DNA of 61,145 nt from the UHGV virus genome UHGV-0030196, one strand, 5' to 3'. The stretch comes from a virus. Both the position numbers and the translations under genes were made by a program. Positions 60,066-61,145 of this stretch are shown one piece after another; within the stretch, counting starts at the first letter, position 1, and the number at the start of each line of letters is the position of its first letter. The notes beneath the pieces were generated by a model. That model was not told the origin of the DNA. It saw nothing but the letters and a program-made list of their open reading frames with translations, and ran no database searches.

Positions 60066-60247
60066 TATGCTTATTGGATACATTCGCATATCAACAAATG
60101 ACCAAAACACCGCTTTGCAACGCCCCCCTTGAAAGCGCAGGATGTGAGCTAATTTTTGAGGGCAAAGCGAGTGGCAAAAAGGCTGAACGCCAAGGGTTAA
60201 AAAAGGTTCTGCGTATGTTTTCCAGAGATGAAGCCTTGGTCGTATAG
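60066..60247 (+). pseudogene. Frameshifted 5' fragment of a second Hin/Cin-family invertase gene
   Basis: MLIGYIRISTNDQNTALQRPP then stop; +1 frame continues AGCELIFEGKASGKKAERQGLKKVLRMFSRDEALVV; ~70% identical to Cin N-terminus. Confidence 0.6.
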
Positions 60248-60499
60248 CAGTTAGAGCGGCTTGAGGGCAATTTAGTTGTGCTGCTGTAATCGCTGCGTGC
60301 CAGGTGAATAAACCTTCTGAATCCCACTAATTCTATCGACATCTGTACACCAATGCAGCGCTCACGATGCAATTAAGATCAACATTACAGGGATGGTTTT
60401 CATTAGTGGTCGGTCCGACACAAGATGCATCGAATTGATGCGCCGCGCGATAAGTGTATCTATTCCCTCGAGATAAACTACATCGACGCGGCATTTGTA

Positions 60500-61072
60500 T
60501 TACAACTCAGATTGAGTTTGGCGCTTCTCTACAGGATGATAACGATAAATCGTCGATACACCGATATCGTAAATAATTGCCAACTGTTTCCTGCTGTAGC
60601 CATTTTCGATCAACCTCGCTATTTGCTCATGTTGTTCTTTTGTCAACTTCGGGCGACGTCCGCCAATGCGTCCCTGTTCGCGTGCAGCTGCCAGTCCAGC
60701 CAGGGTTCTCTCAACAATTAATTCACGTTCCATTTCTGCTAAAGCACCCATGACATGAAAAAAGAAACGCCCCATGGGTGTTGATGTGTCAATACTGTCT
60801 GTCAGACTACGGAAATTAACACCTTTTTCCCGCAACTCCTCTATAAGCGTGATAAGGTGTTTCATACTTCTGCCAAGCCTATCCAGCTTCCAGACAACCA
60901 GCGTATCTCCTTCTGATAACGTTCTGAGCAGCTTTTTCAAGCCTGGTCTGGCTGACTTTGTTCCGCTTATTTTATCTTCAAAAATCAGTTCACATCCTGC
61001 GCAGTTCAGTGCATTTCTTTGTAAATCTGTGTTTTGGTCATTTGTTGACACACGAATGTAGCCAATTTGCAT
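60500..61072 (-). CDS. cin: Serine DNA invertase, Cin/Gin/Hin family
   Basis: IGYIRVSTNDQNTDLQ, WKLDRLGRS, FHVMGALAEMERELI blocks and C-terminal HTH; ATG 61072. Confidence 0.85.
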   Translation of the reverse strand: MQIGYIRVSTNDQNTDLQRNALNCAGCELIFEDKISGTKSARPGLKKLLRTLSEGDTLVVWKLDRLGRSMKHLITLIEELREKGVNFRSLTDSIDTSTPMGRFFFHVMGALAEMERELIVERTLAGLAAAREQGRIGGRRPKLTKEQHEQIARLIENGYSRKQLAIIYDIGVSTIYRYHPVEKRQTQSEL

Positions 61073-61145
61073 GAAAAACAACCTCTTTGTTTAGTTAAAA
61101 ATACATCGTTGGTATAGGTAGGGATTAAGACTAAAACGTTGGTTT

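Follow-up and report, generated by a model that had tools for sequence, protein, structure and literature searches.

A cin remnant beside an intact Min/Pin-type invertase gene at the end of a probable D6-like phage-plasmid sequence

Background

The Min multiple DNA-inversion system of the E. coli 15T- plasmid p15B is said, in the work of Iida (1990) and Sandmeier et al. (1990-1992), to comprise min, six mix sites and a psi-cin remnant (GenBank X62121); psi-cin is reportedly the name used there for the remnant. According to notes in the P1 GenBank record, nt 7147-7408 of p15B match the promoter and first 173 nt of cin with 89% identity and 1 gap. The record adds that the min enhancer homology lies at p15B nt 6463-6533, separate from the cin-like region. 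P1-like plasmids with the same RefSeq invertase accession as the plasmids described below reproduce the p15B figures (90.1% with 1 gap, and 83.1%). The p15B psi-cin is taken as a precedent because of these GenBank notes and their reproduction in P1-like plasmids. An invertase encoded in complement orientation in a P1-like plasmid has 98.5% amino acid identity to Min of p15B (PMC6906374), and a p15B mix site has been published as TTCCCCCAAACC AA CGTTTTAGTCTT (Table 3 of PMC3241671).

The Cin switch of P1 and D6 provides alternative tail-fibre tips. It is located after lydA and before S-R; the 3' end of cin overlaps cixL, and one 4.2-kb segment carries two alternatives. Other members of the Din family of Fis-dependent serine DNA invertases (Hin, Gin, Cin, Pin and Min) include Pin of the defective prophage e14 in E. 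coli K-12, a chromosomal system with two sites and one invertible segment (the P segment), and Gin of phage Mu, which acts on the G segment. Mu is from a different phage family and has two gix sites with GA as the crossover dinucleotide.

The window analysed here is a stretch of 61,145 nt (UHGV virus genome UHGV-0030196), the end of which was given a preliminary description as an invertase pseudogene next to an intact cin. Very probably (a probability of roughly 87%), it belongs to a phage-plasmid that is D6-like and related to P1, and its end falls within a tail-fibre host-range switch, in which replacement of a module left psi-cin behind and the present system is a Min-type shufflon. The layout is that of psi-cin and Min in p15B, on a D6-like backbone; it is an already known, ordinary arrangement. 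Features are listed in Table 1.

Table 1. Location of features at the end of the window.
Feature	Position	Strand	Basis or description
lydA-type holin gene	59637..59963	-	ORF; called holin in the annotation of identical plasmids, lydA in that of D6
psi-cin	60067..60366 (end approximate)	+	What is left of a D6-type cin gene: its 5' half (cin nt 1-~319), decayed
Relic of cin recombinational enhancer, inside psi-cin	60085..60154	+	Homology to the P1 enhancer, which is annotated at cin nt 19-90
Junction and native 3' flank of the putatively imported invertase module	60367..60499		Alignment, hand re-alignment of MAFFT output, BLAST coordinates
Min/Pin-type serine DNA invertase gene, intact, 190 aa	60500..61072	-	Pfam, Gin structures, pairwise identities
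Putative recombinational enhancer, invertase gene nt 19-90	60983..61054	-	Homology to the annotated P1 enhancer
Mix-type crossover site, fixed, invertase-proximal, first 19 of 26 bp	61127..61145	+	Identical to p15B mix site

Results and discussion

The intact invertase gene

The intact gene starts with an ATG at 61070-61072, preceded by an AAGAGG Shine-Dalgarno sequence (61082-61087), and stops at 60500-60502. Its predicted product has the size (~185-195 aa) and domains of the Din family: an N-terminal catalytic domain with the serine (YIRVSTNDQ, Ser9), a DRLGR motif, and a helix-turn-helix (HTH) at the C-terminal end. Pfam identifies Resolvase (2.1e-51, residues 3-135) and HTH_7 (3.4e-15, residues 138-180). 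The Gin structures 4m6f and 3uj3 align with it from end to end (E 4e-92), and Gin is its best relative of solved structure. Pairwise amino acid identities are 81.0% to PinE, the closest named invertase, 74.2% to Cin and 71.6% to Gin. No NCBIfam model matches at its cut-off; the name used here is therefore taken from Pfam, the pairwise identities and crossover sites in the literature.

The preliminary description called this gene cin, a name which does not fit. The Cin proteins of P1 and D6 are 97.8% identical to each other, while the product of this gene has 74% identity to Cin. The gene also faces the other way from cin in P1 and D6: a crossover site adjoins its 5' end, whereas in P1 and D6 it is the 3' end of cin that meets cixL. 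By its sequence the gene is to be classed as Min/Pin-type, and the annotation 'recombinase family protein' should be replaced by Min/Pin-type tail-fibre invertase. UniRef entry Q05517, plausibly the entry for p15B Min, is identical to the predicted protein and is found on at least 1000 contigs. Plasmids on which RefSeq WP_001165547.1 is annotated are one base off the window's invertase gene; judging from the codon, the difference is synonymous.

The cin remnant

A frameshifted N-terminal fragment of a second invertase, in inverted orientation about 250 bp from the intact gene, was the main element of the preliminary description, and it is real. psi-cin begins with an ATG at 60067 and its likeness to cin is recognisable to about 60366. 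It is on the + strand and the intact gene on the - strand, so that the two are convergent; the gap between them is 252 nt if the fragment is taken to end with its longest ORF (60247) and 133 nt if it is taken to end with the recognisable cin homology. BLAST matches phage D6 with E 3e-144 over the end of the holin gene, the intergenic region and the 5' part of cin; the match to P1 cin has E 3e-50. The intergenic region upstream of psi-cin is of D6 type and collinear with D6. The left neighbour, the holin gene, shows where cin lay ancestrally, as cin follows the holin gene in D6 and P1 too.

In alignments psi-cin is 84.7% identical to D6 cin (250/295), 81.7% to P1 cin and 71.2% to the neighbouring invertase gene (198/278); the last value agrees with the earlier estimate of about 70%. 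Its greater likeness to cin of D6 (85%) and P1 (82%) than to the adjacent gene (71%) marks psi-cin as the resident cin and not a copy of that gene. The 5' ends of the two genes form a 54-nt inverted repeat, 83% complementary. This repeat and the convergent orientation would also be expected if the resident invertase gene had been duplicated in inverted orientation, or if inversion had taken place between the homologous 5' ends of the two genes, with decay of one copy thereafter. Such an origin is highly improbable, however, given these identities and the collinearity with D6 upstream. The neighbour, for its part, is 96% identical to the invertase of a chromosomal P2-like prophage and 81% identical to Pin; the fragment and its neighbour are thus different orthologues rather than a duplicate pair.

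The fragment has been disabled in several ways. A 2-nt deletion after 60122 (cin nt 57-58) breaks the frame and leads to a stop after 21 codons in frame 0 (60130-60132). TGG has become TAG at 60245-60247, an internal stop. Three further indels are present, among them deletions of 9 nt after 60269 and 8 nt after 60361. There is no counterpart of cin nt ~320-561, and the fragment thus lacks the 3' half of the gene with the HTH domain. Substitutions relative to D6 cin show no preference for a codon position (15/13/17; chi-square p = 0.77), whereas the functional P1 and D6 genes differ almost exclusively at third positions (1/0/19; p < 1e-7) and a second functional comparison gives 19/9/49 (p < 1e-7). 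With its four indels, internal stop and even spread of substitutions, psi-cin appears to have decayed neutrally after it was truncated. For the interval 60067-60366, which lacks an annotation, the proper label is cin pseudogene.

One of the lesions lies at a run of six C (60123-60128), a type of tract prone to indels in long-read data, and frameshifts could in principle be assembly or sequencing errors in what is really an intact second invertase gene. The chance of this is negligible: the indels are four and separate, the TAG is internal, and cin nt ~320-561 are wholly gone. Moreover, the last 1246 bp of the window (59900-61145, psi-cin included) are matched in nine plasmid assemblies from several countries, with one difference in seven of them and six in the other two, all inside the intact invertase gene. 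Within the psi-cin coordinates there are zero differences across the nine, which come from different countries and hosts, and for this reason the lesions are not attributed to sequencing error.

Recombinational enhancers

The Fis consensus is known, as is the importance of the spacing of Fis sites; changes of the spacing by a non-integral number of helical turns reportedly abolish the function of the Hin enhancer (Johnson et al., 1987). A Hübner-Arber-type consensus, KNNYRNNWNNYRNNM, recovered the sites in the annotated P1 element and at the homologous positions. It is degenerate, with about one match per 128 nt by chance, and enhancers are therefore called here by homology to the annotated P1 element and not by motif. 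Another motif, GNNYRWWWWWYRNNC, was dropped, as it found zero sites even in the annotated P1 enhancer.

The putative enhancer within the invertase gene is 83.1% identical to the corresponding part of P1 (59/71, no gaps), the same figure that the P1 GenBank record gives for p15B min. It contains two Fis-like 15-mers, at 61036-61050 and 60988-61002, whose centres (gene nt 30 and 78) are 48 bp apart. At the sequence level this is the enhancer arrangement of the Din family, and the intact invertase is predicted to depend on Fis. The relic in psi-cin also contains two such 15-mers (60089-60103 and 60135-60149, from the scan with KNNYRNNWNNYRNNM); the 2-nt deletion has shortened the distance between their centres from 48 to 46 bp.

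The presence of this relic raises the question whether psi-cin has been kept for a role in cis, either as a second Fis-bound enhancer for Min or as a promoter-bearing stub whose transcript enters the invertase gene convergently at its 3' end and tunes the frequency of inversion. Both Fis-like 15-mers are intact in sequence, but their spacing is altered, and the invertase gene has a properly spaced element of its own. The first 150 nt of psi-cin are better conserved than the rest (93.2% against 76.2% identity to D6 cin; Fisher p = 4e-5), a gradient which later homologous exchange with relatives carrying intact cin explains equally well. psi-cin persists in some form in hundreds of P1-like and D6-like plasmids, but chromosomal prophages have the same module without it. 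In the P1-like version, moreover, the spacing is 48 bp, but site I is mutated (TATAGACA...) and the indels are different. No single feature of psi-cin is thus conserved across the lineages, as the spacing is altered in the D6-like form, site I is mutated in the P1-like form, and the indels differ. A promoter and terminator scan of the region gave counts no higher than in shuffled sequence. It found no convincing terminator between psi-cin and the invertase gene, which would suit a convergent transcript; nor did it find a sigma-70 promoter above chance for the invertase, or any promoter assignable to either gene, which speaks against such a stub. A retained function in cis is accordingly considered very improbable, and neutral decay of the resident cin is the preferred reading.

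The crossover site at the end of the window

The final bases of the window had been noted as resembling the core of hix, gix and cix sites, and they do belong to this family. The window is cut 19 nt into the site, which is located 54 nt upstream of the invertase ATG and consists of a left half-site, AAGACTAAAACG (61127-61138), the crossover dinucleotide TT (61139-61140) and the GGTTT of the right half-site. All 19 available nt equal the reverse complement of the published mix site next to p15B min, and the sequence fits the published dix and mix tables. It should be noted that the core 12-mer AAACSNNGGTTT, although it has a single match in the window, at the window end, is by itself no evidence for a site, because 26 of 100 shuffled sequences also have at least one match. 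Crossover sites of the Din family are imperfect dyads of 26 bp (12-2-12, AAAC../..GTTT) that face each other in inverted orientation across the invertible DNA. Full 26-bp sites are present in near-identical plasmids, by which the window's site would be completed as ...GGTTTGGGG(A/G)AA. The end of the window should be labelled as a mix-type crossover site.

The shufflon in near-identical plasmids

The preliminary description looked to the adjacent sequence for inverted crossover sites and an invertible segment. Beyond the position of 61145, plasmids which are 99.5-99.9% identical to the window over its last 1.25 kb contain 3-10 crossover sites in both orientations, flanking tail-fibre tip cassettes. 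The number is three in the closest relatives (L001 and L011) and up to ten in L005 and L007; all relatives examined have more than two, all of them in sequence beyond the window. These sites have the form ...AAAACG TT GGTTTGGGGGAA, and the p15B mix sites CACATAAAAACG TT GGTTTGGGGGAA and TTCTTGATTACC TT GGTTTGGGGGAA recur among them exactly.

Natural inversion occurs in these plasmids, which are near-identical over the compared stretch. Plasmids pEc-050-T0_3 and pEc-050-T5-ESBL_3 (L011 and L012), from serial isolates of one study, are isomers in which the 1.9-kb stretch between sites B and C is inverted; the right half-sites have been exchanged reciprocally at the central TT. In L001 and L006, a 2370-bp segment between sites A and C is 100% identical and in opposite orientation. 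Half-site exchange at the central TT, as in the Din family, is seen between these natural isomers. Simulated AxC and BxC inversions yield in-frame S proteins of 548 and 558 aa, the longer of which is also found in the annotation of the natural isomer. A deletion model comparing L014 with L011 over the whole stretch failed, as their inversion states also differ; coordinates from L011 and L013 were used in place of that comparison.

The same cassettes probably follow in this replicon, the sequence of which ends at 61145; this is extrapolated from plasmids whose 99.5-99.9% identity to it refers to the last 1.25 kb only. As the shufflon is active, this region will vary between assemblies of these common phage-plasmids of E. 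coli and Salmonella, or will interrupt them; isomers of it occur among serial isolates. Prediction of host range for P1-like and D6-like elements, including those which carry resistance genes, should consider the repertoire of cassettes (3-10 sites).

Comparison with described systems

The window shares with p15B a P1-related plasmid-prophage backbone, a Min/Pin-type invertase with an 83% match to the P1 enhancer region, and a fixed mix site next to the start of the invertase gene, with a match at every one of the 19 nt that the window contains. A truncated 5' part of cin is located beside the invertase in both, between lydA and the 3' end of min. In the window's relatives there are, as in p15B, more than two sites and tandem tail-fibre-tip cassettes. 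Differences arise in the backbone and psi-cin, which are of D6 type in the window and not of P1 type; in the length of psi-cin (~319 against ~173-180 nt of cin) and its lesions; and in the number of sites in the relatives, which is 3-10 rather than six.

The likeness to the Cin switch of P1 and D6 is one of position, invertase family and purpose, and psi-cin is the remnant of that system's own gene. The invertase differs, at 74% amino acid identity and in the opposite orientation, and the relatives have several small cassettes in place of the single large segment. In e14, a site followed by an invertase gene reading away from it gives the same layout; the right half of the site, GGTTTGGGAGAA, is the same, and the invertible DNA contains convergent chaperone genes of the tfaE/tfaP kind, 603 and 417 nt long. 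The module has 84% nucleotide identity to e14 in the tfaE region and 76-84% in the stfE cassette and pin. e14 differs in its two sites, single invertible segment and chromosomal location. The order of invertase gene and invertible segment is also that of Mu, which differs in its crossover dinucleotide, pair of sites and phage family; Gin has 72% amino acid identity to the window's invertase. The closest module of all is found in a P2-like chromosomal prophage, which has the same layout and an invertase with 96% amino acid identity.

Origin of the arrangement

The ancestral order would have been that of D6 and P1: lydA holin, cin, cixL, the invertible C segment, and cixR inside the tail-fibre gene S. 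A module of the e14 or P2-like-prophage type would then have taken the place of the C segment and of cin beyond its first ~319 nt, which would have stayed behind as psi-cin, to decay neutrally. Such a module has a Min/Pin-type invertase gene that reads outward from the invertible DNA, and short tail-fibre-tip cassettes, each with a 26-bp crossover site ahead. In the resulting system, the Min-type invertase is expected to bind the crossover sites, namely the fixed one at 61127 and those within S and the cassettes. Very probably it also requires Fis at the enhancer in the 5' coding region of its own gene. Strand exchange at the central TT would then invert segments and fuse different cassettes in frame to the constant part of S.

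This history of replacement is inferred from architecture. The opposite orientation of the invertase gene is best explained as the gene order of the donor module, inherited. The suggestion of past rearrangement at an inversion switch stands in that the pseudogene testifies to a rearrangement at a tail-fibre switch; nothing points to the switch itself having produced it by inversion. psi-cin is best read as a fossil of the module swap and not as a product of the switch's own rearrangement. As such it is a tidy natural record of how P1-like plasmids and P2/e14-like prophages exchange modules. Beyond correct annotation, the significance of the arrangement is small.

At its tail-fibre border the module joins exactly at the crossover core; the Sc-side half-site there, TTATCCAATACC, is that of D6 cixR itself. 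On the psi-cin side, module DNA is common to the window and P1-like plasmids from about 60374. MAFFT's placement of 60364-60396 against L004 was misleading in this respect; by eye, homology starts at ~60374 and not at 60397. The window and the P2-like chromosomal prophage are alike from 60436, where the prophage match stops at a disrupted ygjJ gene.

The Min module is found in a P1-like and a D6-like lineage, and the question arises whether it was captured twice, independently, or captured once and then spread by homologous recombination. The two versions of psi-cin share no lesion, each resembles the cin and upstream region of its own backbone, and the break in cin is at ~nt 180 in one and ~nt 319 in the other. 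Two captures would account for these differences, but the starting point of the module (window ~60367-60374) varies by no more than ~7 nt between the lineages, both have the same RefSeq accession for the invertase CDS, and the module DNA is 95-97% identical. In psi-cin, the 3' part is 24% diverged and the 5' part 7%, as would be expected of an old relic that later received a new 5' end through recombination with relatives carrying intact cin and that lost ~130 nt in the P1-like line. Double capture is possible but less probable than a single capture with subsequent spread.

A more general and improbable proposal is that the Min module may be a discrete cassette which has been captured repeatedly, with psi-cin marking a preferred point of entry. 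If this were true, invertase-mediated recombination between heterologous sites (cix x mix) could help to move entire tail-fibre and invertase modules between phages. The observations behind the proposal are the start shared to within ~7 nt, the lack of a common lesion, the different breaks in cin and the join at the crossover core.

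Genomic setting

Over its last 1.25 kb (59900-61145), the window is 99.5-99.9% identical to thirteen complete plasmids of ~90-93 kb from E. coli and Salmonella. Several hundred further plasmids match it in part. The best partial phage match is D6 (86.8% over 59900-60362), followed by P1/P7 (~79% over 60065-60362). In D6 and the near-identical plasmid NZ_CP093921 (L001; window position = L001 position + 50899), the annotated late region is of P1 type: portal, ddrB/ddrA/darA/hdf homologues, lydB and the lydA holin, then the tail-fibre inversion region. The window is thus a piece of a D6-like phage-plasmid which stops inside a host-range switch. 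The min module is common: among 5426 complete E. coli genomes 916 have a match, and 198 of the 916 cover at least 80% of window 60363-61145.

Other features include a tRNA cluster and a very long ORF which, at a guess from its position in a P1-like genome, may encode a DarB-like protein. The C4 and a1/b1 matches (50509-50714) are the P1-type immI immunity region.

Coordinates of features in the window
Feature	Position	Strand	Remarks
tRNA cluster	36120-37381	-	five genes: Met-CAT, Ser-TGA, Thr-TGT, Tyr-GTA, Arg-TCT
Very long ORF	41824-48663	-	2279 aa
C4 antisense RNA	50509-50594	-	Rfam match, 68.8 bits
a1/b1 target sites of C4	50662-50714	-	Rfam match, 54.4 bits
psi-cin lesion 1	cin nt 57-58		2-nt deletion; original frame stops after 21 codons
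psi-cin lesion 2	60245-60247		TGG>TAG
psi-cin lesion 3	after 60269		9-nt deletion
psi-cin lesion 4	after 60361		8-nt deletion
Intact invertase	60500-61072	-	190-aa serine recombinase; AAGAGG Shine-Dalgarno 9 nt before ATG

Invertase and cin pseudogene

The intact invertase has Resolvase (2.1e-51) and HTH_7 (3.4e-15) domains, and its whole length aligns with the crystal structures of Gin (E 4e-92). Its amino acid identity is 81.0% to e14 PinE, 74.2% to P1 Cin and 71.6% to Mu Gin, and reaches 96.3% with the enzyme encoded by a P2-like prophage that sits in ygjJ in an E. coli chromosome. The exact protein is UniRef Q05517, present on at least 1000 contigs, and a CDS with RefSeq accession WP_001165547.1 occupies the invertase position in D6-like and P1-like plasmids alike. 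The gene is therefore not cin, and the preliminary description was wrong to label it so. The closest plasmids bearing this accession are one base apart from the window within the gene: 60881 is A in the window and G in seven fetched plasmids, the sole difference over 59900-61145. By our own codon reading it is synonymous (codon 64, GAT/GAC, Asp). The reverse-oriented invertase of a P1-like plasmid is 98.5% identical to p15B Min in a published comparison (PMC6906374). The deposited genome of phage vB_EcoM-673R5 (ON470615, locus L004 6309-6880) has the Min-type invertase annotated in two separate ORFs, 'Hin1' and 'Hin2', apparently because a frameshift in this entry splits the gene (97.5% amino acid identity, in two tblastn pieces).

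The ATG at 60067 starts a stretch collinear with D6 and P1 cin, and homology is recognisable up to near 60366 (cin nt ~319 of 561). This relic, psi-cin, is 84.7% identical to D6 cin (250/295 over cin nt 1-306), 81.7% to P1 cin and 71.2% to the adjoining intact gene. Its 45 substitutions are spread over codon positions as 15/13/17 (p = 0.77 for uniformity), against 1/0/19 for P1 versus D6 cin and 19/9/49 for the intact gene versus D6 cin (both p < 1e-7). Across 59900-61145, all differences from nine fetched plasmid assemblies are confined to the intact invertase gene, so sequencing errors are ruled out as the source of the lesions. Taken together, these data mean that the pseudogene is real, that it is the resident cin and not a copy of its neighbour, and that it has decayed without constraint. 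The frameshifted fragment noticed earlier, ~70% identical to the neighbouring invertase, is thus borne out.

According to the P1 GenBank record, the enhancer is annotated at cin nt 19-90, and P1 nt 31684-31754 within it match p15B nt 6463-6533 at 83% identity, ungapped. The same P1 segment matches nt 25-95 of the window's intact gene at 59/71 positions (83.1%), also without gaps. By analogy, an enhancer is expected within the 5' end of the intact gene. Pairs of matches to the Fis consensus KNNYRNNWNNYRNNM, which is degenerate and reportedly due to Hübner and Arber, have their centres at nt 30 and 78, a distance of 48 bp, in P1 cin, D6 cin and the intact gene. Both Fis-like 15-mers are present in psi-cin, with the spacing cut to 46 bp by the 2-nt deletion; work on the Hin enhancer is said to imply that such spacing should disable an enhancer. 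Fis dependence and promoter position are inferred; a promoter scan of the region was uninformative.

Hin, Gin and Cin act as dimers on two inverted 26-bp sites, which join a Fis-bound enhancer in an invertasome; the central dinucleotide is cut and strands are exchanged by subunit rotation. From homology, dimers of the window's invertase would likewise bind two inverted 26-bp sites, which would assemble with a Fis-bound enhancer into an invertasome. Cleavage at the central dinucleotide would then be followed by strand exchange through subunit rotation.

Crossover sites and tail-fibre cassettes

Window 61127-61145 reads AAGACTAAAACG TT GGTTT. A table of Din-family sites lists the p15B site adjoining min as TTCCCCCAAACC AA CGTTTTAGTCTT (PMC3241671); its reverse complement, AAGACTAAAACG TT GGTTTGGGGGAA, is identical to the window at all 19 available bases. 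L001 completes the site as ...GGTTTGGGGAAA. The resemblance of the window end to a hix/gix/cix core, suspected from the start, therefore holds. The core 12-mer by itself is statistically unremarkable in the window; the case for this putative site is carried by the comparative and literature match.

Followed past 61145 in relatives, as had been proposed, the sequence does contain an inverted site and tail-fibre cassettes. L001 has two tandem tail-fibre-tip cassettes after the proximal site; a separate site, GGCATAAAAACG TT GGTTTGGGGGAA, belongs to the second. Beyond them lie convergent tail-fibre assembly genes (603 and 417 nt), and the inverted site TTATCCAATACC TT GGTTTGGGAGAA is within tail-fibre gene S. 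Other relatives have up to 10 sites, several of which are p15B mix sites letter for letter. Shufflon size differs widely among otherwise similar plasmids (L001, L005, L007, L008, L010), from 3 sites in L001 and L011 to 9-10 in L005 and L007. Each cassette is ~430-540 bp, and they are stacked head to tail.

Inversion among isolates

Plasmids pEc-050-T0_3 and pEc-050-T5-ESBL_3, from serial isolates of one Swiss study, are 99.9-100% identical in each aligned block. From the second site to the S-gene site the two are inverted relative to each other over a 1932-bp alignment, with a reciprocal swap of right half-sites at TT. Between L001 and pKFS-D08_2, the 2370 bp from the invertase-proximal site to the S site are 100% identical but inverted, and GGTTTGGGGAAA, the unusual right half that belongs to the proximal site, adjoins the S half-site. 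When inversions are simulated, S stays in frame and encodes 548 or 558 aa, compared with 560 aa in L001; the natural isomer has the 558-aa protein annotated.

The invertase-proximal site of pKFS-D08_2 (L006 7228-7253) is a hybrid of mix and cix, AAGACTAAAACG TT GGTTTAAGAGAA, followed by a 2.67-kb S-gene segment which lies in the opposite orientation in L014. Recombination has here brought together a left half of Min type and a cix-type site, suggesting that the invertase works across both site types.

Past the window end, some near-identical plasmids (loci L013, L014 and L006) have ~2.5-2.7 kb of additional S-gene DNA (L013 9091-11653 versus L011 9091-9116) between two directly repeated sites, TTATCCAATACC TT GGTTTAAGAGAA (identical to D6 cixR) and TTCTCGCATACC TT GGTTTGGGAGAA. 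L001 and L011 have the single hybrid TTATCCAATACC TT GGTTTGGGAGAA instead. This is the exact product of a site-to-site deletion or, conversely, an insertion target.

Proposed origin of the module

The arrangement is already known: p15B likewise combines min, multiple mix sites and a cin remnant. Iida, Sandmeier, Arber and colleagues reportedly described it in 1990-92 and are said to have named the remnant psi-cin. The present case differs only in its D6-type backbone, in a longer relic whose lesions are different, and in the variable cassette number among relatives. The practical value lies in correct annotation and in awareness that the region inverts between isolates.

The cin gene of D6 and P1 points towards the C segment, and its 3' end is overlapped by cixL. 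In Mu, e14, the ygjJ prophage and the window, the invertase has the crossover site upstream and is oriented away from the DNA that inverts. L001 and e14 are related in their invertible DNA, with 84% identity in the tfaE region and 76-84% in the stfE cassette and pin. On the simplest reading, an e14/P2-type module would have replaced the 3' half of cin and the C segment, bringing cassettes, sites, invertase and ~130 nt of invertase 3' flank. The junction on the tail-fibre side falls at the crossover core itself, and D6 cixR has the same S-side half-site, TTATCCAATACC.

In P1-like plasmids with the same-accession invertase CDS, psi-cin is of P1 type, is shorter (~nt 1-180) and carries other lesions. 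Its identity to P1 is 90.1% with one gap, in line with what GenBank notes for p15B (89%, 1 gap). The imported DNA starts within ~7 nt of one point in both lineages (alignment redone by eye). In the window, the first 150 nt of psi-cin are 93.2% identical to D6 cin, against just 76.2% for nt 151-306 (p = 4e-5). Two independent captures of the module are less favoured than one old capture. In the latter scenario the 5' part of psi-cin would later have been exchanged homologously with relatives whose cin is intact, and the P1-like line would have lost ~130 nt.

A prophage of the JB2 type is the likely donor class for the plasmid module. In the E. coli JB2 chromosome (L009 9079-13759), a prophage whose tail and baseplate genes are of P2 type lies next to a truncated ygjJ and ends in the same module; this has an invertase 96% identical in amino acids, six mix-type sites and tandem tip cassettes.
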